Of a DNA stretch of 64,000 nucleotides, positions 1 to 64,000 are shown piece after piece. The notes beneath the pieces were generated by a model that worked only from the letters and a program-made list of their open reading frames with translations, was not told the DNA's origin and did not search any database. Numbering within the stretch: position 1 is the first letter of the stretch; the number at the start of each line of letters is the position of its first letter. Both the position numbers and the translations under genes were made by a program. This stretch comes from Fimicolochytrium jonesii. Its lineage: Eukaryota. Location: the NCBI RefSeq assembly GCF_025526975.1, contig NW_026515685.1, forward strand, positions 248,001 to 312,000. Reading direction: 5' to 3'.

Positions 1-1030
1 CTTTCTGTTTCGTAGGACATGCAAAGTTCCGCACGGTGTCCAATTTCGAGGGTGCGATGGCCATCGTATCCTCTCCCAGGACATGGCTGCAGAATTCAAG
101 CTCTTTCTGCATCCATTTGCACTTCGACGGCTTAACTTAAAGTTTGTGCTCGGCGAGAACAGCCAAAACGCTGTCCACATGAGCGATATGCTCCTCGGCC
201 GTTTCCGAGAAGATTAAGATATCATCCAGGTAAGATATGACATACACAACGCACATCTTCCCCAATATCTTATTGGTTAACCGTTGGAACGTTGCTGGCG
301 CATTCGTCAACCCAAATGGCATAACTTACTCAAAATGACCAAACCGTGTCCGAAACGCTGTTTTGTCCCTATCAGCCTTGCAAACCAAAAGGCGGTGATA
401 CGCATCTTTGATATCCAACAAAGACTTGCACTTCTTTTCACGTAACCGATCCCGCATCTCTGCAAGATTTGGTAACGGCGTACAATCTTTTATCGTTGCT
501 TTATTCAGTGTCGGGGATATCTCATCTTCACTTGTATTTCATATTCCATGTCTTTACTTCTACTTGATCCGAGACCCGGGCTGGCCACCCGAGCTCTCGG
601 TGATACATTACATAAGGCGCCAAGCCTCACTGAAGCCACGCAAGCCCCACTGGCAGCCCATATATAAGGCTGTCAGTCAAGCGGCCGCTGCGAAGAGCTT
701 CTTACTTTTTTCTTCACGACAATATACCGCTCTCAGCTCTCTCGGAAGGGCCCAATATCGTCTACGTTTCCTCTGACGTTACATTCAGCCCACGATAGTC
801 GATGCACATACGGAGACTGCCATCCTTTTTCTTAGCAAATAACACTGCCGCGCCCCACGGACTCTGCGAGTGCTGAATCCAACCGCGCTCGAGCATGAGG
901 GTAACCTTCTCATTTAGCTCTTTGAGTTTGGCTTCGCTCATATGTCGTAAGGGATTAAAGACTGGTTTCGTACCAGGCTCCAGCTCGATACAAAAGTTAT
1001 CCTCTCCCCTATCGGGCGGCAACTCTCGTG
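1..1030 (-). pseudogene. Reverse transcriptase part of pol, inactivated
   Basis: RT motifs are continuous once 509-783 plus one TSD copy is removed (DYRGLN|KATIKDCTPLPNL...LDIKDAYH). In-frame TAA before VMPFG (~326-328), a second TAA after HKL (137-139), and a frameshift near 1030 relative to the protease ORF. Confidence 0.88.
509..783. mobile_element. Solo LTR (275 bp) of a different element, inserted in the RT
   Basis: Starts TGT and ends ACA. Flanked by a 5-bp direct repeat TTCAG (504-508, 784-788). Internal TATATAA near 661. Removing it restores the RT frame. Confidence 0.88.
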
Positions 1031-2062
1031 CTCGACAAACAAACTATCCACGCACTTCTCCAACGTTGGATATAGAAGGTGATCCGATGGCACGCTTAAA
1101 TCAACCTTCTGGCCTGTAACTTCGCTCATTTGAACCTCTGGCTCTGGTTCGGCGCGATTGCGCTCATCTGCGGGGACATAAGCTGGTGACGCATTCACTG
1201 CAGCTTCTATGTCCATAGCGTACGCTATGTAACACTTCCCATACACCTTTTTTCGAGATAAGCGAGTGACCTTCTGATAAGTTACAACCCCTGCACTCGG
1301 GTCTTCTCGTTCAGGCATCGCCGCCTTGAATCGTTTAGACTTCTTTCTGGTGTCAAAGGACCGCAGATCGGCCGCATTACAGGACGACTGGGATTCCCAT
1401 TTCCTAGTTACTGGTCTGGCACCCAGGGTATGTTCAACTTCATTTGCACGGAATCGTAGAACAGGAATCTCATCCTCTATGTGCTCGAAACGATTATTGT
1501 CAAGCATATAGATCCATGGCAATCCGAGAATAACATCTACCCGCAGAGGAGCAACCACAAATGGAAGCTGTTCTCTGGAATAGTGTCGTCCATCTCCCCA
1601 CAACTGTAGATTGCCACAAAATACCTTGTTGGCGTTGAATGTATGGCCGTCGTCGCCCCAGGCGACATCAATGGGCATTTTAGGGTTATAGGTTTGGAAA
1701 GCATGTTTCGACACCCATCCCTGATGTACCATCAGTGTTGTACATCCCGTATCGATCAGAATACGACAAAACTTGCCATTCAACTTGCCATGAACTACAA
1801 ATGCACATCGTGCGATCAACGCATCGGGTTGAAATTGCAGTGCTTCAGGCCTAGTCTTCAAAACGGTTTCAGTGTCATCTGGCCGGCACAGACGCGCCCC
1901 CGCAGCAGACGTATTGCCACAATCAACCAGTATACCATCAGCGGACTCAGGGCGTATAGCCTCAAATTCCTCTTCGATGGACACCATTGCACAATGAGAC
2001 GAATAAACGGTGTCTTTATTAAACGTCTCTACTGAAAACCCTTTTTCTGACCAGCGTCCCAA
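938..2062 (-). CDS. Pol N-terminal part with retropepsin-type aspartic protease
   Basis: [10 protein letters not shown] active site and DVILGLPWI motif; lies in the -1 frame relative to gag. Confidence 0.85.
1996..2041 (-). promoter_or_regulatory. -1 programmed ribosomal frameshift signal between gag and pol
   Basis: Slippery heptamer G GGT TTT in the gag frame (2041-2035), a 5-nt spacer, then the stem-loop GAGACG(TTT)AATAAA-GACACCG-TTTATT CGTCTC (2029-1996). Confidence 0.8.
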
Positions 2063-3297
2063 CGCGGCTTATCCTTAGCCTCGTCGGACTTCTTATCCTT
2101 CTTCTTTTTAGGACAATCTTGCGCACGATGACCCATCTCGCCACAATCGAAACACTTCATGTTGGAGAAGTCAGGGCGTGCGTAAGGTTTAGCAGCTTCC
2201 GCCTTCTTAGCTTTCCCCCCCTTCTTGCCCGCAGTACCTGCGGCAGAAGAGACATTAGCACGTTTAGGCGCACTACTACCAGAAGCAACCGCTTTATCGT
2301 TCGCGTCGGTTCCCTTATTGGCGAGACAAGGTACAGCAAACGAACTAAGCGCACGATCCATCAAACGAATCAATGGAAATGCGAGCAAAGGGTGTTGGTC
2401 CCTATAATCGACCATCGTATGCAATAACGACTGGGCGATCTCATAGCCTACGGTATTGGTCTTATCACGAGTAAGACCACGAAGGAACAGGTTATTCAAA
2501 TCGTCAGGAGTGATAACCTCCAGGTTGCGCTGTGCCTCAGCAACGATACGTTTGAACTCCATCACATACGAATCCATCGACCTATGAAAGGACATTCGGT
2601 GCAGGGTATTGAGCGCGTTGGTTTTCGCTTTCGTAGGATAAAAGGCGAACTTGAAAGCCGTTTCAAAATCCTCCTTCCGCATGTCAAGCCTGCATGCGGT
2701 GTCGAACCAGGTACGTGCGTCGCCTTCAAGCGAGCTCGAGACCTTCTGCATGTACTTAAAGCGGTCAATCGGACGACCAAAAGTAACCATGAAGTCGGTA
2801 TGTTTCTGCAAAAACGTGTCGACAAAAGCGGCCTCACGCTGTTTGCCATTGAACGGATGCTGCGAGATCCATGTACCATAGTGTCTACGCTGCTCGATAT
2901 AGAATGGATCCACCAACCCATCCTGCAGCACATCACGGCGCATTGCGGAGTCACGCTCCAACGTAGCTCGCAAACGATCCTGTTGAGCCTGATGTTCCTC
3001 GGCATGTTGATCGCAAACTTCTGCTTGAGCGGCAGCCGCAGCAGCCTTCATTCGGGCATCAAGCTCCTTGACGGAGATCGTCAACATAGCCATAGCGGGC
3101 GGGTGAGCAGGAGGAGGTCCACCGACCTGGATGCCCTCCAATGGAGCAGGGCCCGTCGTTCGAGGAGGAAGGCGAACTTCAACACGAGGTTGGTCCACTG
3201 AAGTCTCCGGCTCCTCAACGATCTCAGTAATAACAGCCGTGCCTCCAGGAGTAGTTTCCTCACTCCCGGTAACTATACTACCCGTTGATGTACTCAT
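2029..3297 (-). CDS. Retrotransposon Gag
   Basis: 422-aa ORF with the capsid-like segment LEGDARTWF...YVMEFKRI...FLRGL and the zinc knuckle CFDCGEMGHRAQDC. Confidence 0.92.
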   Translation of the reverse strand: MSTSTGSIVTGSEETTPGGTAVITEIVEEPETSVDQPRVEVRLPPRTTGPAPLEGIQVGGPPPAHPPAMAMLTISVKELDARMKAAAAAAQAEVCDQHAEEHQAQQDRLRATLERDSAMRRDVLQDGLVDPFYIEQRRHYGTWISQHPFNGKQREAAFVDTFLQKHTDFMVTFGRPIDRFKYMQKVSSSLEGDARTWFDTACRLDMRKEDFETAFKFAFYPTKAKTNALNTLHRMSFHRSMDSYVMEFKRIVAEAQRNLEVITPDDLNNLFLRGLTRDKTNTVGYEIAQSLLHTMVDYRDQHPLLAFPLIRLMDRALSSFAVPCLANKGTDANDKAVASGSSAPKRANVSSAAGTAGKKGGKAKKAEAAKPYARPDFSNMKCFDCGEMGHRAQDCPKKKKDKKSDEAKDKPRWDAGQKKGFQ

Positions 3298-29320: not shown

Positions 29321-31467
29321 CTACTGCATCCCATTACAATCCCCCCCAACATTCCCCTCCTCCGTGACCGTCTTCACATCCTGCGTCCCCACACCCTGCA
29401 CATGTCTCGAAATCCCACCCAACCGACTCCAGGTTTCCAGCCCAACCAACGCCAACGTCGCGCCCGCGGCCAGCGCAACGCATTTTGCCGAAGTCATCAG
29501 CGGGTGCTCGTCACTCGCGGCCGCGGCCAGTGCCGCAAAGCACACAGCGACAGCCATCCTTGCGACGGTGCGCACGCGTTTGGACAGCCGCGAGGCGTGC
29601 AGCGACCTGTGGGTGAGGGAGATGACGGTCATGCAGGACAGCGTCACCGCCAGCGATCCAAAGAAGGTGCGGTACGTTGTTGTTGAAAAGTTGTGGCCGC
29701 CCCCAGGTGCATCGGCGTGATGATCACCCGCACCGTCGTCGGTGGCGCGCACCATCACCTCGACGCTGACACCCGCGAGGACGACGGCGCCAAACATGGG
29801 GATGTGGGATAGATTCCACGTGATCCCCGTCCAAGCGTGCCTGCGCATCGCATGAATCTCCTGCCGGGATCCGTCGACGTCGAAGTAGATCCAGGCGAGG
29901 TTGAGGGCGAGGATGAGTGCCAGGACCGCTTTGACGTACGAGAGGTCCGGGGTGGCTGAGAAGGATGTGTAGAAGAGGGCGACCATGACTTCACCCAGCA
30001 CGATGATGAGGAACAAGCCGTTGCGTTCCGAGAGGTGCTCGATACTGACAGCGAGGCGATGCACGGGCCGCGGGATCCAGGGGATGTATCGTGAGGCGAG
30101 GAGGATGCACGGGTTGAGGAGGTAGTCGAAGGCGATCCCTGCCCACCAGAGGGAGTATTTGTGCTCTTTTGAGAAGATGGAGCTGATGAAGAAGACGGCG
30201 CTGACGAAGGAGGGGAGGGCGGATTGGACGAGGGAGGCGCGGAATTGAGGGAAGAGGGGATAGTAGGAGAGGTAGGTTAGGGCGAACGAGAAGCGGATCA
30301 GGAGGTAGAAGACGATGAAGATGGTGTGGGTTGAGGAAATGGCTTCTGTGCAGTTGATGCCGAGTCCGACGACTAGGGCCATGATCTGAGGATTGCAGAG
30401 CCGTTAAAGGATGTGGGCATATCCATGCCGGTAGCCGGCGGTGTGTCCATGCGCTGGATTACGTACCCAAACAATGAACCCCTTCTGTGCCACATCGTCG
30501 CTCGCAAAGACATTGTAGTACATCACCATGTCCACCCACGGTCTGTGTTCCGCCAGAAGTGTCAGATTGAGTCAGTCCGAGTTACAAAGGCGGTGTCCCT
30601 CAACGCGGAAAACGTTCCCGTCACGCACCTGATGCTCATGAGGAACAGAATCGAAAACTGCGGGAGATCCAGCGGGGACTCGGTGCCAATGTAGGCGCTT
30701 CCCAATATGGCTACGATCCCCGCAAACAACAAATCAAACAACAGCTCCAGCCACGTCGTCGTCCTTTCCTCCGCCTCTCTAATCAACGTCGTGTGTCGAA
30801 TGAGGTACTGGCGGATCCTCGGCTTCTTCCAAAAGATCTGACTCAGCTGCTCATCATCGCCGTTTGGCTCCTCCGTCGGCATGATTTCCATATCGATGGG
30901 TCCATACTGTTTGATGGACGGGTGGACCATGGTCGCGGTGGAGGAGGATCCATTGGTTAGTGTGCGTGTGAAGCGGAGAAGGTCGCTTTTGTGAGACTCG
31001 AGTTCACCGCTGATCTGCTCTGCGCGCTGACGGGCCAGTTCCTTTTCGTCTTCGGCGTCGCGGGCGGTTTTCTGCAGCTCGAGGACTTTTGTTTTGAGCG
31101 CTGCGATGTGCTGGGGGCTGCCCATGACACAAAACTCGGTTTCGGAGCCATTGGAATCGATGCTTTTGTTGCAGGGAGGCAGTTCGTCGGGGTTGTCGAC
31201 GATTTGGAACTGCTTGGAGCCGGAGCGGAAGAAGCGAGTGCAGGTTTGGTGAGGAACTGCACCAGAGGGAGGTGCCAACGTCGACGCAGGTGGGGTGGTG
31301 CCTTCCTCGTTTATGGAGACCGAGCGCCGAAGCACGGACGCTTGTCGGAAACGCTGCCTCTGCTCGTCGTCGTGGTGATGGTGGTGAGCCACCGGGTGGT
31401 GCCCAGGGGGGATGTTAAACTCGGGAATGTCGACGGCGAGGTGTTCATGGTCCACCATTGCAGCCAT
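29321..31467 (-). CDS. Low temperature requirement protein A (LtrA)-family membrane protein; 3 exons (31467-30629, 30542-30467, 30385-29321)
   Basis: TTWLELLFDLLFA, EHLSERNGLFLIIVLGE and WIYFD signatures; both introns have GT-AG ends and preserve the frame. Confidence 0.9.
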
Positions 31468-31983
31468 TTTGAGGAGTTCCTCGTTGCTGCCGAAGCGCGG
31501 TGTGTAGCTACGGGAGATACTACCGTCCCTCCTGCCCTATATAGTAAGCGCTCTGTGTGTGCTCACAAGAGGCTTCGACGAGAGGCTTTGACGCCTGGTC
31601 CTCTGAGTGCGAAAGTGGACAGCGAAGCGTGGCGGAAGTGGTCAGAACTTGAATATGGAGATCGGCGCCTCGGAGGGGAGTCGCGCCCGGTTCTCCACTG
31701 CAATATGGAAACCCCCCGCCGATCGCCCCGGGATCGCCCTGTCGACACTGGACAGTCGGACATGTCGAGACATAATATGCATGTGCATACAGTCCTATCG
31801 TTACTTATAGTATGCAACAAGGCGATCCCGTACGCCGGACGCCATCTGACATACACGCACTCCTGCGCACTCTGCTGTAGATGTAGATGAAAGACTAGAT
31901 TTACGGGAGAGGGCATGATGGCACTGAGATTGATGTAGCGCATTCTAGGGAGCGTGCACAACTCAACCAAGACTACTGGGTAA

Positions 31984-54464: not shown

Positions 54465-55694
54465 ATGGCTGTTTCGGCGTGGCCTCAACTCGCTGCCGCC
54501 GCCGCCGCAGGTGCATCAATACAGCCAACGTCGGCGCAAAAGGGTATGTGTGCTCACCATCGATGGAGCAGAAACCCTGTCCCAGCCCTTGCGGCGGCCG
54601 CCGATGCTCCAAAGCAACATCAGCAGCCCCATCAGCAGCAACAGCAACAGCGACAGCAGGACTCTAGCACGACAACCCCAGTATCCGCTCAACTAGTCTC
54701 CCAGTTCGTATGCCTAGTCGTACATCGAACATGGCCGCACCGGCCAGGGATGAGCACCCCAGGCCGGCCACACCCCTCCTTCCTCTCCTTTGTCTCGCGC
54801 ATTCAACGAACCTCCGGCGTCTCCTCCATCGTCCTCTTCCTCTCCCTTCTCTACATCGTCCGCTTCCGCCGCGCATCCTCCCCAACCATCAGTAGCAACA
54901 GCGGCGTCCCCGACTCGATATCTGCGCTCGACGGTAACAGTTTCGGAAACCAGGCCGCATTATCCGAAGCGAGACTCGTCACAGCCGCCGTCATCCTCGC
55001 CCAAAAGTTCACCGACGATAATCGCTTCACCAACAAAACGTGGGCCGAGCTCACCGGCTTTGCGCTGGCGGACATCAACAAAATGGAGACGGACTTCCTC
55101 GCTAAGATAGACTTCAAGCTGCATGTCGGTGAGGAGGAGTTTCGGTCGTGGGTGCGGTACTGCAAGGCATGGGCGAGCCAGCTGGGCGTCTCGCTGGAAG
55201 AGGATCCGAACTCTACATCCCCGTCAAAGGCTTCCCCGCAAACAACGTCCACGATTCCATCCACCATCCCCGCAAACCTTCCGCCACTTCCAACTGCGAG
55301 GTCATCACAGCAACAGCAACAGCACGCCACGATGGTCGGCTATTACCGCAAACGCAAAGTGGAGCAACCTGACCCTCTCGCTTTCCACCCGGACTTCGTC
55401 CCGCGCAAGATCCCCCGCACCCCATCGGCCGACATTCCCCACATGCATCAACACGCCCACCATCAAACCCGTCGAGCAGCTTGGTCCGCCAGCAACACGG
55501 GCATCAACAACTCCGGCGGCCTACCCAACAACTTCGCATACCCGATGCCCACGATGCTCATACCCGGCTCTCAACAAACACCACAAGCACAACAATACAT
55601 CCAAATGCCCGCATACAACATCAACAGCAATCACCCGCTCGCGCTCCATCCCGTATACCCCATGCCGCTGCAGTGTTACCTCCCGCCGTACTAG
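54465..55694 (+). CDS. Pho85-type (PCL / Clg1-like) cyclin
   Basis: Cyclin box LFLSLLYIVRF...RLVTAAVILAQKFTDDNRFTNKTWAELTGFALADINKMETDFLAKIDFKLHV; TATATAAA at about 54358. Confidence 0.92.
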   Translation: MAVSAWPQLAAAAAAGASIQPTSAQKGMCAHHRWSRNPVPALAAAADAPKQHQQPHQQQQQQRQQDSSTTTPVSAQLVSQFVCLVVHRTWPHRPGMSTPGRPHPSFLSFVSRIQRTSGVSSIVLFLSLLYIVRFRRASSPTISSNSGVPDSISALDGNSFGNQAALSEARLVTAAVILAQKFTDDNRFTNKTWAELTGFALADINKMETDFLAKIDFKLHVGEEEFRSWVRYCKAWASQLGVSLEEDPNSTSPSKASPQTTSTIPSTIPANLPPLPTARSSQQQQQHATMVGYYRKRKVEQPDPLAFHPDFVPRKIPRTPSADIPHMHQHAHHQTRRAAWSASNTGINNSGGLPNNFAYPMPTMLIPGSQQTPQAQQYIQMPAYNINSNHPLALHPVYPMPLQCYLPPY

Positions 55695-57634
55695 GCGAGT
55701 GACATTCCATCGCAGCACACAGACGCTTTTTTGCCTGCACGCCGCTCTATACCAGTATCATCGTCTGTTCCGGAGATGGGCATTTCAACCGATTTTGTTT
55801 TCACGTTACCCCCCAAGTTATGACTTCTAAACACCGCCCCACCCCCGCCTTTTCACTTTGTGTACCATATTTTTGTTTGATTCTCCTTGTATATGCTCTA
55901 GAGTAAATTAAATTTTGAACGATCGACGGGGTATTCCCCAAACAACAACTGCTTGCTGCCCATATAGCGACGTCGCTTTCGACGGATGTTTCCGACCGGA
56001 AAAAAAGCCTCGTTGCGCAATGCGGAGTTTGAGGGACTAAGCGCCGTTTAAATACGAGTCACGTGAGGTTTATCAAGCGCAACACATTTTTCTCAGCCGT
56101 GCCGCCGCCGCCGCCGCACACAATCCAAACAACTTCCAACTGTCCACGTTGGGAATCGATGGGCCTCGCCGATAGGAAATTTGCACATCATCCCATTACT
56201 ACGAGCTCCTAAATGACAGTGAGATTGGGAGCGCTGCGTCATCACCCATGATGCGAAACTGAACGCCGGGCAGCGATCGTTGTCGGCGCAAGGTGTTGCG
56301 GGCGCAACGAGACAGCACTCGCAACATCTGACAATTGATGGTCGTTAGCCTATCTGCGAAATGTCCGTGGGCGATATACTGTACGGCCGTACAGTAGATA
56401 GCACCTTTCGTAGGCCTTCCGTGTTGGTGCATACAGTACAGCAGGATAGTAGCACGATGTAGCCGGATAGGACTGTACGCCGCCACGCATCGTGGTGTCG
56501 TATTGGGGGGCTGGAACCGGTTGGTTATCCTCGCACATGGAACGCATTGCCCCACCACAACTCTTCGCGCTGCTTCATCGCATGTCCGACACGTGCAACG
56601 TCCTCAATGTAATTTCCCTCCTTCCGCTTGTGTTTTGTACGCTCGTGATACGGTCGCCAACACTGTGCTGTGTGGACACTGTGGTTGCGTGCAGTGTGCG
56701 CTGTCACCCGCTTTGCGCTCCTGTTGGTTGGGAGGCTGGACCAGCCCGGCGTCGTTGGCGTATGTGCAGTACAGTACAGTACTGTATGTGCAGTATCCGA
56801 GTCGGGCTGTTTTGCGCTCTCGTCCCATGTCAAGGGTCTTCGTTCGGCGTCAAGGCGGGAGGTTCCACAAATCACACACCACCAAGTCCCGCCCTCCATG
56901 GCCAGGACACGAGATGGCGGTCGCGGACTCGGGGAAATTCGGGTGGGGCACCCTTGGCACAATACCTCACCGCGGTTCCAGGCTCGTATAGCGGGTGAAA
57001 ATGTGACATGAACCCCTGCGAGATGTCATTTTACGACCCAAAGTGGAGCCGTTTTGTGCGCCTCCTGGTGATTGCCTGGTTTTGGGTTTGCCTTGATCCA
57101 TATCGAACTGCCAATCTTCCTCGAGTCCAGAGAGAAACCAAGCGGACCGAGCTGTGATTCACTGGCGCCCTGAACTAGTCTGAAGACGCGTAAAATTGAT
57201 ATTATCCCCCTCTGTTGAAGGCCCAAGAGCATGCAAAGGCCTTGCAGCAGCGGAGTTGTTGGTAGCGTCGAACGATGTTGAACGTATCCTTTCCGACCGG
57301 TTGGGAAAACAAGTCAACACCGACATCATCAGGCAACGTCGTTGATGTTGGCACGGATTTCTACGCGGTGCGTTTCCTCTCAGGATCTCTTGGGATGTCC
57401 GTCCGCTTCCCTTAGATCCATCGTTCAGATCGCGGCTGTACAGCAGATTTCCCCTTGCGGTTGTATTTGCAGTCGACATCCCAAGTGTGCGAAATCCTTT
57501 GCAGTAAGATGTAACACATCAGCACATTTACAGATCCGGTCTTTGTGATTTGCACGGCTTGCGTAGCCCTCAAGGGACGGTGAAAATGGGAGCACATATA
57601 AAGGCATCGATGCCCTGCTGCACCTCTCGCTGGG

Positions 57635-57940: not shown

Positions 57941-58990
57941 ATGTCAGCATTTGATTTTTATCCACCAGGCACCGGCGATGCCAAATTCATGTCGCTAAAC
58001 GGTCTTCCCAACCTCATCGGATGCCCGAATCCGCAAACTCTGATGTACGGCCAGCAGCCGGCACAATCCATGCTGTATCCGCCACCGGCGCTGTACACAA
58101 ACTATCCTTGGACCCACCATACGTTGCAGCCGCCAGTCCTGACGTTCTTCCCCACATCGGCACCGACATCCGCTCCATCCCCATGGCCCGAAGCGCCGAG
58201 TGATGTCGAAATCGAACAGTTGCTAATATCGTCGCCCCCGCCCCCGCCAGTCAATCCGGCGCAAGGTCTCCCGGAGTCATACGTGAGGGATAAGTTACGC
58301 AGTCTTGGAACGCAGCTATGGGGCGATGTATCGTCCTGCGATTGCTGGGTATTCGTCGAAACCCGCCGATCGAGCCATGATGCCGGTCCCAGTGCCTCGG
58401 CAAATAGACCTCCGACGAAGAAGCCGACACACTTTTCGATGACAGCTGATGGCCTGAACCCGCCGATGCCGCGACCGAAAAAGCCGGCTGAAGATTTCGT
58501 CAGCGTTCATGGGAAGTTGTATCGGGTGGTGCCGTCTGCACAGAGGAAAGTGGAAGAAGAGCAGCAGCGGCAGATGCGCCCATTGACGTTGCCGACTATC
58601 TTGCCCGTGCATTCGATCTTCTTGACGACGTTCTCGCCGGTTCTAGGGAAGCTTGTTCACGATGAGCAAAGGGCCAAGCAGGCGAAGTCACTACCGGCAC
58701 CTACCAGTGGCATGTATCAGCAGTCAGTGCCAACATCAGGTTACGCCGTGACAGAGGACGGCTTTCAGCCACCCCACACGATAACCGTGCAGCCGCCCAG
58801 CCCGGATGCATTTGCGATCCTGCTTCATTGGATATATACGGGCAACGTGGATGCCATGCAGGCGTTCCTAACGAACAGCGAGGGTGCTGTGCTGGCTGTG
58901 TTGGCGAATATGGAGTGGATCGGGTTGAGAGACTCGGAGCTTGCTGCACTGTGTGAGAGTGTGCAGAGGAGCATGGAACTTGAATTGTGA
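57941..58990 (+). CDS. BTB/POZ-like domain protein
   Basis: 349-aa ORF with CDCWVFV, LPVHSIFLTTFSPVLGKL and ITVQPPSPDAFAILLHWIYTG, a split BTB-like signature. Confidence 0.75.
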   Translation: MSAFDFYPPGTGDAKFMSLNGLPNLIGCPNPQTLMYGQQPAQSMLYPPPALYTNYPWTHHTLQPPVLTFFPTSAPTSAPSPWPEAPSDVEIEQLLISSPPPPPVNPAQGLPESYVRDKLRSLGTQLWGDVSSCDCWVFVETRRSSHDAGPSASANRPPTKKPTHFSMTADGLNPPMPRPKKPAEDFVSVHGKLYRVVPSAQRKVEEEQQRQMRPLTLPTILPVHSIFLTTFSPVLGKLVHDEQRAKQAKSLPAPTSGMYQQSVPTSGYAVTEDGFQPPHTITVQPPSPDAFAILLHWIYTGNVDAMQAFLTNSEGAVLAVLANMEWIGLRDSELAALCESVQRSMELEL

Positions 58991-61900: not shown

Positions 61901-62672
61901 GCATGCGTCAGTCCCCGATGTGGATAGCCCGCCTCGTGGAAGTAGCGCGATATCTTTCCAAAGATGGACTTACCAGTCCGTCGTCTTGCCCGTGATACCG
62001 ATCTTCGTGGCATGTTCGGGACCATCGGCGAGTCAAGCGAGGGGAGGACCTCGCAGTCTGCGACGCTGCCAACCTCCCAGCGTCGCCAGCGTCGCCAAAT
62101 CATACTGTCCCAGTCAGCAACAGCCAAACCTTCTCCCTTTCTCTGTGTTCTCTTCAACTTTTCGTTTTATGTATTGTACAGTACAAACAGTTGTGGCACA
62201 GAAGTGACGAAAATGAAACTCAACGCGCACAAAATAGCTTTTTATACGTACATTGGACCATATTGAACACAGATGAGCCTGATGATGGACCTCCCAAGGC
62301 TCCCATCGAACCTCCACCGTCACTGTGAGCGGCTAATTCCTTCGCATTCCACAGGGCTTCTTCTGTTTTTTTTTTCATGTTGAAGGGATATTGAAGGGAT
62401 TTGCGGCGAGCTCTTCCAGCGAGGGCTTCCATGGAAGAAAGAGGGAGGAGGTATGGGGGCAAGGGGCGAGAATGAATTGGCAGACTCATCAACGCGGTGA
62501 CGGCGGGATGAAGGCTGCAACGATCAATGCAAGCGTGAGCGGGAAATGAAGCACAAGGAGAAGATCGGTGTCAGCTTTACGAAATTGGAGACTCACCCGA
62601 GCTTACGAACAACCCACCGCTTGGTCGCCAAGGGAGGAGGGTACGCTCGACGGTCGTCTGATCCGGTTCGTC

Positions 62673-62679
62673 TATAAAA
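62673..62679 (+). promoter_or_regulatory. TATA box upstream of the hairpin cluster
   Basis: TATAAAA followed about 25-35 nt later by a pyrimidine-rich stretch typical of a start region; no credible ORF downstream. Confidence 0.6.
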
Positions 62680-62749
62680 GACGGGGTCTGGAGCTCATCC
62701 CCACCACTTTTCTTCATCCGAGTCCCCCAACTCACATCGTTCAGCAAGC

Positions 62750-62850
62750 GCGATTACTGTTCTTTCGCATTCAGGTTCTGTCTTGCACATCAAAAGACAA
62801 TACGCAGTGGTGTGCGCAACACATAACTTGGAGCGGAGAATAGTAATTGC
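62750..62850 (+). ncRNA. Pre-miRNA-like hairpin 1 (conserved 3' arm 62824-62847)
   Basis: GCGATTACTGTTCTTTCGCATTCAGGTTCTGTCTTGCACATCA pairs with TGGTGTGCGCAACACATAACTTGGAGCGGAGAATAGTAATTGC, using G-U pairs on the plus strand. Confidence 0.7.
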
Positions 62851-62905
62851 TGTCGTCGGCAACATCAGTTTCCGCTTTTTCTGAACCTGTCAACCGCCCA
62901 GCTTC

Positions 62906-63034
62906 CCAGATACCACATCATCACTGTTCCTTCATTTCTGAGTTTGGTCCTGACGAGCTTTTGCATACGGCTTTCATTCGGCCTGTTGCCCATACGTCAG
63001 CACCTAACTTGGAATGGAGAATGGTAATGTCTGG
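62906..63034 (+). ncRNA. Pre-miRNA-like hairpin 2 (conserved 3' arm 63005-63028)
   Basis: CATCACTGTTCCTTCATTTCTGAGTTTGGTCCTGACG pairs with CGTCAGCACCTAACTTGGAATGGAGAATGGTAATG; basal CCAGA/TCTGG helix. Confidence 0.7.
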
Positions 63035-63094
63035 TCTTGATACATTGGCAAGGCCTTGACATCTTTACGGTCGTCTTTTCGATTTTTATTTTGT

Positions 63095-63222
63095 GTCGAG
63101 GTTCCGGTTACTGGTCTTTTCATTTCCGGGTTTTGCCTTGACGCTTCATGCGGCCCCATGTCGGGCCGGAGATGGCGATAATGCATAACTTGGAATGGAG
63201 AACAGTAATCAAGACTTCCGAC
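63095..63222 (+). ncRNA. Pre-miRNA-like hairpin 3 (conserved 3' arm 63186-63209)
   Basis: GGTTACTGGTCTTTTCATTTCCGGGTTTTGCCTTGACGCT pairs with GGCGATAATGCATAACTTGGAATGGAGAACAGTAATC; apical CGGCCC/GGGCCG helix and basal GTCGAGGTT/GACTTCCGAC helix. Confidence 0.7.
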
Positions 63223-63444
63223 GTTCTTTGGAATGTGACCATTTGCCTCGGTTACCCATCACTGGCAACCGATTAGCATCTCAAATTCAGTATGAATGAC
63301 ATCCAAACCATCCACGATCATTGAAGTCTGGCTTTCCTCAGTACCATCTCATTCGCATTCCAAAAACTTGTATTTCCAACAGCGTAATGGTATGCACCAC
63401 AACAGTCTCCCTCCCCCGCGAGAATGGTATATACACATAATCAA

Positions 63445-63624
63445 AAGGCACCACCGGGAATCCCGAGTCCTTTATCACAACAAAGAACCGCAAGCGCTGA
63501 TAATACCGTTCGGAGCAAAACTGGAGCCCCCGTCACTCCTCTCTCCTGAAGGCACCACCGGTAAACCGGGTCCTTATAGCAAACATAAACCGCAAGCACG
63601 ATATAACCCGACCGAACACAAACT
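63445..63624. repeat. Degenerate direct repeat, 2 x about 77 bp
   Basis: AAGGCACCACCGG...GTCCTT...AACCGCAAGC...AAACT at 63445-63522 and 63549-63624. Confidence 0.75.
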
Positions 63625-63651
63625 ACGGCCCCGTCAACGATTTTTTTTCCT

Positions 63652-64000
63652 TTAGGAAGGCGGCGCTAGTGGAGCCCAATCCTCACTGTCCGCGATTCCC
63701 TGCATGATTGCAGCGATGCTCTGTAGCGCTGAGTACGCTCCTGTTGAGGTGGAATATCAGTGACGAACGTACAAGTGAAGATACCGTTGCTGATCGAGCA
63801 ATACATACCCTGGCTTATGGTCAACTGGATTTTAAAAGGCCCCTCCCCGGGCTCCTCCGCATCTTCGTCATCCCCGCTCGCGGCACCCGACGACGACGCG
63901 GGCTCACCGTTGGCTCGAACGACGAGCGCGGTGAACTTCACGGGCTTAAGCACAATCCGTTCAGTCTGGGTAGCGTTCCCGCTGCTGAAGCCAGGAGCCG
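63652..64000 (-). CDS. 3' end of a gene entering from the right edge; C-terminus resembles the KA1-like tail of Gin4/Hsl1/BRSK-family kinases
   Basis: Intron 63808-63741 (GTATGT...CAG); spliced product LKPVKFTALVV...FKIQLTISQGAYSALQSIAAIMQGIADSEDWAPLAPPS*. The kinase domain itself is not visible. Confidence 0.55.

Follow-up and report, generated by a model that had tools for sequence, protein, structure and literature searches.

The 64-kb stretch of DNA analysed here (the window) is eukaryotic and fungal, and belongs to the chytrid Fimicolochytrium jonesii (Spizellomycetales, Chytridiomycota). Its cyclin open reading frame (ORF; 54465-55694) has five matches besides itself at E<1e-30, all from Spizellomyces, Powellomyces or Geranomyces. 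Its lysophospholipase, translated across introns, is a 92% match to a protein annotated from F. jonesii. The last long ORF (57941-58990, +) is an orphan of 349 aa with coding-like codon use and a TATA box 344 nt upstream; it matches no Pfam family and has no homologue at E<1e-5 among 4,570 candidates. About 3.7 kb beyond it, in intergenic sequence, lies a cluster of three tandem hairpins (Table 1). Positions within the hairpins are counted from the first U of UAACUUGG (+1), found at 62824, 63005 and 63186 with a spacing of 181 nt both times.

No signal of a known noncoding RNA or of a coding origin was found for the cluster. Rfam 15 gave no family at or above the gathering threshold over the whole window, the best match within 62400-63700 having an E of 0.58 and 22 bits against the 60 needed. 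ARAGORN found neither tRNA nor tmRNA, and the codon score is positive in no frame of 62700-63299. No fourth copy of the hairpin exists within the 64 kb. The homologue search covered metagenome, viral and phage collections only. A 20-nt degenerate pattern retrieved 10 metagenome loci and a 19-nt pattern two viral loci, all of which we attribute to chance: in the metagenome loci the motif is single-copy and 0-14 of 22 bases pair upstream, against 19-21 in the window, and the contexts of the viral loci repeat those of two metagenome loci (L007 and L003). A covariance model built from the three hairpins gave no score for any of the 12 motif loci, and blastn against phage returned no match.

Other features of the window were recorded in passing. 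ORFs for a Ty3/gypsy retrotransposon gag (zinc knuckle) and aspartyl protease occupy 938-3297 (-), and an ORF with a domain of the LtrA family (bacterial low temperature requirement A) is present in this chytrid at 29321-30382 (-). A two-copy repeat of about 95 nt, with a spacing of 104, lies 3′ of the cluster at 63435-63634 (+); a weak small hairpin opens each copy (z -2.1 and -1.3), and a common strong fold is absent. An unrelated 12-bp hairpin occupies the linker between hairpins 2 and 3 (63047-63105); its z is stronger on the + strand (-3.0) than on the - strand (-0.3), in agreement with a + strand transcript crossing the linker.

Table 1. Features of the hairpin cluster and its upstream region. 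Star strands are predicted from a 21-nt guide with 2-nt 3′ overhangs.
Feature	Positions	Strand	Remarks
TATAAAA box, candidate Pol II promoter	62673..62679	+	from sequence; 77 nt upstream of hairpin 1; putative function
Hairpin 1	62750..62850	+	MFE -45.0, z -6.0, 0/200 shuffles as stable
Hairpin 1 predicted star	62758..62780	+	23 nt, two bulged bases
Hairpin 1 mismatch-3bp-mismatch element, 5′ arm	62778..62782	+	partner 62820-62824; upper mismatch in minority register
Hairpin 1 conserved 24-nt block	62824..62847	+	21-22/24 identical between copies; predicted guide 62824-62844, ends predicted
Hairpin 2	62919..63029	+	MFE -40.3, z -3.5, 1/200 shuffles as stable
Hairpin 2 predicted star	62925..62947	+	23 nt
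Hairpin 2 element, 5′ arm	62945..62949	+	partner 63001-63005; U-U, 3 bp, C-C; 3-bp pair probabilities 0.96-1.00
Hairpin 2 conserved block	63005..63028	+	predicted guide 63005-63025, ends predicted
Hairpin 3	63106..63210	+	MFE -49.9, z -5.2, 0/200 shuffles as stable
Hairpin 3 predicted star	63112..63135	+	24 nt, three extra bases
Hairpin 3 element, 5′ arm	63133..63137	+	partner 63182-63186; U-U, 3 bp, C-U; 3-bp pair probabilities 0.98-1.00
Hairpin 3 conserved block	63186..63209	+	predicted guide 63186-63206, ends predicted

Fold geometry and selection on RNA structure

The hairpins fold more strongly on the + strand (z -6.0, -3.5 and -5.2 for hairpins 1, 2 and 3) than on the - strand (-2.0, -2.8 and -3.3). 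When 8,520 segments of 110 nt were ranked by MFEI, hairpin 3 came first and hairpin 1 second; hairpin 2 fell outside the best 30. All three are stable fold-backs whose duplex contains neither a secondary stem nor a large loop, as in the fold criteria of PMC9757828.

A sequence-only reading of the locus had described, in each stem, a mismatch at the first U of the conserved motif, then three base pairs of differing sequence and a second pyrimidine mismatch toward the loop. The first mismatch was borne out in full: U+1 faces C62778, U62945 and U63133, all unpaired with a probability of 1.00, and the pair closing it at +2 has probabilities of 0.89, 0.66 and 0.73 in hairpins 1, 2 and 3. The three pairs (UGU/ACA, GGU/ACC, UGC/GCA) likewise hold, at sampled frequencies of 0.55, 0.96 and 0.97; in hairpin 1 the MFE register is slipped by 2 nt (p about 0.4) and the centroid coincides with the register as first read. 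The letters of the second mismatch are as described (C-C at 62782/62820, C-C at 62949/63001, C-U at 63137/63182). Thermodynamic folding aligns the mismatches, with the upper one as a 1x1 loop, in hairpins 2 and 3, but hairpin 1 more likely forms a 2x4 loop, the register as read lying 1.3 kcal/mol above the minimum. The full 1x1-3bp-1x1 geometry was sampled at 0.16, 0.62 and 0.59 in hairpins 1, 2 and 3, and the mismatch observation is thus confirmed for two hairpins and corresponds to a minority fold in the third. RNAalifold, run on a plain sequence alignment of the three copies, returned exactly the register in question. Folds of the remaining window show the same geometry in 52 out of 16,564 three-pair stacks; as the copies are paralogues, its recurrence represents retention under divergence and not three independent hits.

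Two small bulges had also been attributed to each 5′ arm. Two bulge columns are indeed homologous in all three copies, both able to slide within U runs; hairpin 3 departs from the description in having a third extra base and a poorly defined centre. The AU-to-GC change at +10/+11 of hairpin 1 is compensated, as claimed, by G62767 and C62768.

Three lines of evidence support the proposal that selection acts on RNA structure, within the limits of a comparison between three paralogues. First, in a core of 30 pairs, obtained from the 40 predicted ones by setting aside 8 at the apex and 2 at the base, 88 of 90 cells pair and six pairs have changed on both sides. This result was equalled in 0 of 500 shuffles, a control that does not amount to a probability, n being three paralogues. 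Half of the six double changes, at -1, -3 and -5, flank the invariant -2 pair. Second, a simulation of neutral decay, in which the observed number of substitutions was placed at random, retained 19.3-23.6 pairs on average, against the 29-30 of 30 observed; each of six comparisons had 0-39 runs out of 20,000 that attained the observed pairing. Third, G-U combinations outnumber A-C combinations 16 to 2 (binomial p 0.0013) in a register picked by RNA folding, an asymmetry that points to a single RNA strand and that decay at the DNA level would not yield.

Identity declines from the 3′ block (21-22 of 24 positions) to the opposite arm (16-19 of 27) and to the apex (9-20 of 45 columns), and the loops cannot be aligned among the three copies. 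A mature arm more conserved than the star, and a star more conserved than the loop, is the profile expected for a miRNA family; among the three paralogues it is accompanied by compensatory change. The same profile is stated for the fungal milR22 (PMC9757828). Together, these findings support the view that the cluster is a real, selected + strand RNA structure.

Predicted transcription and processing

A single TATA box precedes the three hairpins. Elsewhere on the + strand, four of eight TATAAA sequences are followed within 500 nt by a long ATG ORF, against a coverage of 7% (p 0.0014); on the - strand none of four is, giving 4/12 for both strands (p 0.012). Neither an A box nor a strict B box, the elements of a Pol III internal promoter, was found in 62500-63800. 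T5 runs are present in both linkers, which argues against a single Pol III transcript and sets the cluster apart from known fungal milRNA loci. From the one box, the lack of A and strict B boxes in this interval and the T5 runs, we infer one Pol II transcript. Hairpin 1 alone may be transcribed by Pol III, since abundant Neurospora milRNAs use this polymerase with TATA-like elements (PMC3547838).

The mismatches had been suggested to mark cleavage sites for an RNase III enzyme, and a specific register can now be predicted for such a cut. With n the last position before the cut on the counted strand, human DICER reads a C-C mismatch at n-3 through residue R1855 of its dsRBD (PMC10899750, PMC11487123, PMC13171623, PMC10685087). 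A C-G pair at n-1 and an R-Y pair at n direct the cut, and pairing at n-1 and n is required (PMC10899750, PMC11487123). We scored 12 registers, six in each direction (loop-to-base and base-to-loop). When positions are counted along the 3′ arm from the loop toward the base, a cut just before U+1 has in all three hairpins a mismatch at n-3 (C-C in two), a pyrimidine partner at n-2 and C-G at n-1; two hairpins have R-Y at n, and two have a weak pair at n-4. This is the sole register of the 12, and loop-to-base only, in which the GYM/mWCU-YCR positions are occupied in all three copies (hairpin 1 through its minority fold), a match that is post hoc and qualitative, given several motifs, 12 registers and three non-independent copies. 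Every other register has C-G at n-1 in at most one hairpin. The motif points to the base at which sequence conservation starts, the conserved U. Among background folds, a G-Y-mismatched C is found at 32 of 16,564 stacks, and at one when combined with the lower mismatch.

The animal-like placement is not reproduced: in both adjacent base-to-loop registers C-G at n-1 and C-C are each found in 0/3. The secondary YCR (G-C at n+2) was also considered and does not fit a cut at U+1. The available text of PMC12915624 and PMC13686912 holds nothing bearing on the register. The mismatch pattern resembles the signal that human DICER reads and would, by analogy, fix the start of the guide.

The shape of the precursors bears on the direction of cutting. 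The lower stem beneath +21 comprises only 3-6 contiguous bp, and the region above the predicted cut is paired and spans 43, 57 and 50 nt in hairpins 1, 2 and 3. Among plant precursors, those cut from base to loop depend on about 15 bp of stem beneath the duplex, and the short ones cut from loop to base have a structured top measuring about 42 nt (PMC3787264). With their short lower stems and tops of 43-57 nt, the hairpins are also compatible with cutting of the plant type that starts at the loop. The 5′ end of the guide would in that case be the end from which length is measured. By the rules of human DICER, the invariant G+20-C pair and the +22 mismatch of hairpin 2 both favour a 21-nt product (PMC11487123), and the 5′ U favours 22 nt (PMC13171623). 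The predicted 21-nt guides are identical at positions 1-9, 12-17 and 20-21, whereas 10-11 and 18-19 differ between them; the variation at 10-11 suggests seed-type recognition instead of slicing. A strand bias caused by the unpaired U, proposed in the sequence-only reading, is plausible as a prediction.

The proteomes of three other Spizellomycetales encode candidate enzymes. Spizellomyces punctatus, S. sp. palustris and Powellomyces hirtus have three Dicers each, with at least one dsRBD-bearing copy in every species, and S. punctatus and P. hirtus have a fully canonical Dicer, a class comprising 35 of 2,911 fungal Dicers (PMC12663654). In the same source Dicer was not detected in Geranomyces variabilis, whose genus is among the matches of the cyclin ORF, and Fimicolochytrium is absent from the supplement files examined (12/13).

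A search within the window gave no significant target for the predicted guide. The best whole-guide duplex, at 31641-31680 (-) within a - strand ORF, has an energy of -23.0 kcal/mol, in the range of eight shuffled guides (-19.5 to -25.3). Two 8-mer seed sites occur, against 1.6 expected. One perfect match to the predicted seed lies at 55813-55820 (+), 119 nt past the stop of the cyclin ORF, with G-U-rich extended pairing; it is not significant, being matched by 7-43% of null sites.

A candidate microRNA-like gene and its alternatives

The cluster behaves most like a polycistronic miRNA gene, of which we regard it as a candidate member. That it gives rise to small RNAs, by whatever processing, we consider quite probable. 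We hold more tentatively, as a possibility falling somewhat short of probable, that it is a loop-first, motif-marked polycistronic microRNA-like gene. The scheme starts from three stems with a conserved 3′ arm and covariation, at an intergenic site after a TATA box. A single Pol II transcript would begin at about 62700. The first cut would fall in the 3′ arm between -1 and U+1 and in the 5′ arm after an invariant G (62780, 62947, 63135), set by the GYM/mWCU-YCR-like element as read by an enzyme that faces the base from the loop side. The second would be placed about 21 nt from the first end, aided by the invariant G+20-C pair. Loading of the 3′ arm on Argonaute would be favoured by the unpaired 5′ U and by the bulges on the star side, and three guides with the common seed AACUUGG would result.

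Animal homo-seed polycistronic miRNA clusters and the Drosophila tandem hairpin RNA hp-CG4068 produce near-identical guides from one transcript. The tandem paralogous hairpins described here are alike in arrangement; they are fungal, their processing is predicted, and they are without the Drosha-type lower stem, which measures about 11 bp.

Known fungal milRNA loci (Neurospora milR-1 to -4; Johnson et al. 2022, PMC9757828) have in common with the cluster an intergenic hairpin, a favoured arm, a 5′ U and a TATA-like element, whereas the present locus consists of three tandem paralogues with one seed. Its 43, 57 and 50 nt between arms contrast with less than 20 nt in top-tier fungal milRNAs (PMC9757828). 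Short plant loop-to-base MIRNAs (MIR156, MIR160, MIR171b) resemble it in their structured top of about 42 nt, a lower stem of little extent, a bulged star longer than the guide, and two cuts presumed to be made by one Dicer (PMC3787264); the tops here are 43-57 nt long and the direction of cutting is a prediction. A conserved C-C mismatch also distinguishes the cluster from plant MIRNAs, in which such mismatches impair processing (PMC11317159).

New here is that an element read from loop to base matches, by analogy, the GYM/mWCU-YCR motif of human DICER (PMC10899750, PMC11487123, PMC13171623; Lee et al. 2023, as cited in these papers and in PMC10685087). The likeness extends to the mismatch at n-3, the pyrimidine at n-2, the C-G at n-1 and pairing at n-1 and n. 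Unlike in animal pre-miRNAs, the element is situated between the loop and the predicted cut, with U-C in hairpin 3, and its reading would presuppose an equivalent of R1855 in a fungal dsRBD.

Several observations count against the loop-first reading. Animal Dicer is the only enzyme for which the GYM/mWCU-YCR motif is known, and there its orientation on the hairpin is the opposite one; the upper 1x1 mismatch of hairpin 1 is a minority fold (0.16); the terminal regions are not uniform (43-57 nt); and the harm done by C-C in plants, the short distance between the arms of top-tier fungal milRNAs, the undetected Dicer of G. variabilis and the target search in the window, which gave none of significance, all weigh on the same side.

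The same microRNA-like cluster could be processed without a loop-first motif cut, which we think rather unlikely. Dicer would then act the usual way, or Argonaute and exonucleases would, as for some Neurospora milRNAs; the mismatches would serve loading or unwinding, and the guide would start at U+1 or one base earlier. The second-best register, in which Dicer faces the usual way and the product starts at -1, has a mismatch at n-3, G-C at n-1 and a weak pair at n-4 in all three hairpins, but it lacks C-C, the C-G polarity and R-Y in every copy (0/3 each) and its first base varies (A/C/A). G-C also works at n-1 (PMC11487123), a cut giving U+1 satisfies the two-pair rule from the usual (base) side as well, and at least four milRNA routes exist in Neurospora (PMC3547838); on the other hand, base-first measuring of the plant type would need a longer lower stem (PMC3787264).

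It is quite improbable, in our judgement, that the hairpins are a structured noncoding RNA or cis element that is never diced, with the conserved arm and mismatches forming a surface recognized by protein. All the structural evidence would fit such an element equally well. However, only about 24 nt of one arm, beginning with a U, are conserved; the opposite arm has drifted through G-U pairs and compensatory changes, and the loops cannot be aligned. It is not obvious why the binding of a stem by protein should constrain a single strand across two helical turns, and no Rfam family, tRNA or tmRNA matches.

Very improbable is a DNA-level relic, either a tandem triplication of a MITE-like inverted repeat or a short coding repeat (on either strand), folding by inheritance only: the exact 181-nt period, the second small tandem duplication just downstream and a similar octapeptide per copy in one - strand frame speak for it, but neutral decay would break 6-11 of 30 pairs, the 16:2 ratio indicates one RNA strand and no further copy lies in the window. 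The coding variant is rejected: a period of 181 nt cannot be divided by 3, and codon scores in 62700-63299 are positive in none of the frames.

The fungal survey of PMC9757828 covers mostly Dikarya, plus Glomeromycota and Microsporidia, and the word "chytrid" has no match in its main text. Six 15-nt spellings of the motif had no match in the literature searched, a scope that most subscription papers lie outside. Among the matches listed on chytrid small RNAs, chytrid RNAi and polycistronic milRNAs, in two cases the best 30 of 169 and the best 15 of 9,140, neither a report of chytrid miRNAs nor one of a tandem same-seed fungal cluster appeared.

Fungal milRNAs are mostly single, poorly conserved loci of Dikarya. 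A cluster of covarying duplicates with a shared seed, in an early-branching fungus with relatives that retain rare canonical Dicers, would bear on the question whether animals, plants and fungi acquired their miRNA pathways independently. The locus yields predictions exact to the base for the 5′ end, the length, the order of cuts and the dependence on the motif. In its strongest form, the loop-first reading would make it a true polycistronic microRNA family in Chytridiomycota, with a canonical Dicer that cuts in plant style, loop to base, and recognizes the GYM/mWCU-YCR motif of animals. We consider this form unlikely; if it is true, sequence-guided positioning of Dicer, and perhaps miRNA-type regulation, would be older than the split between animals and fungi.
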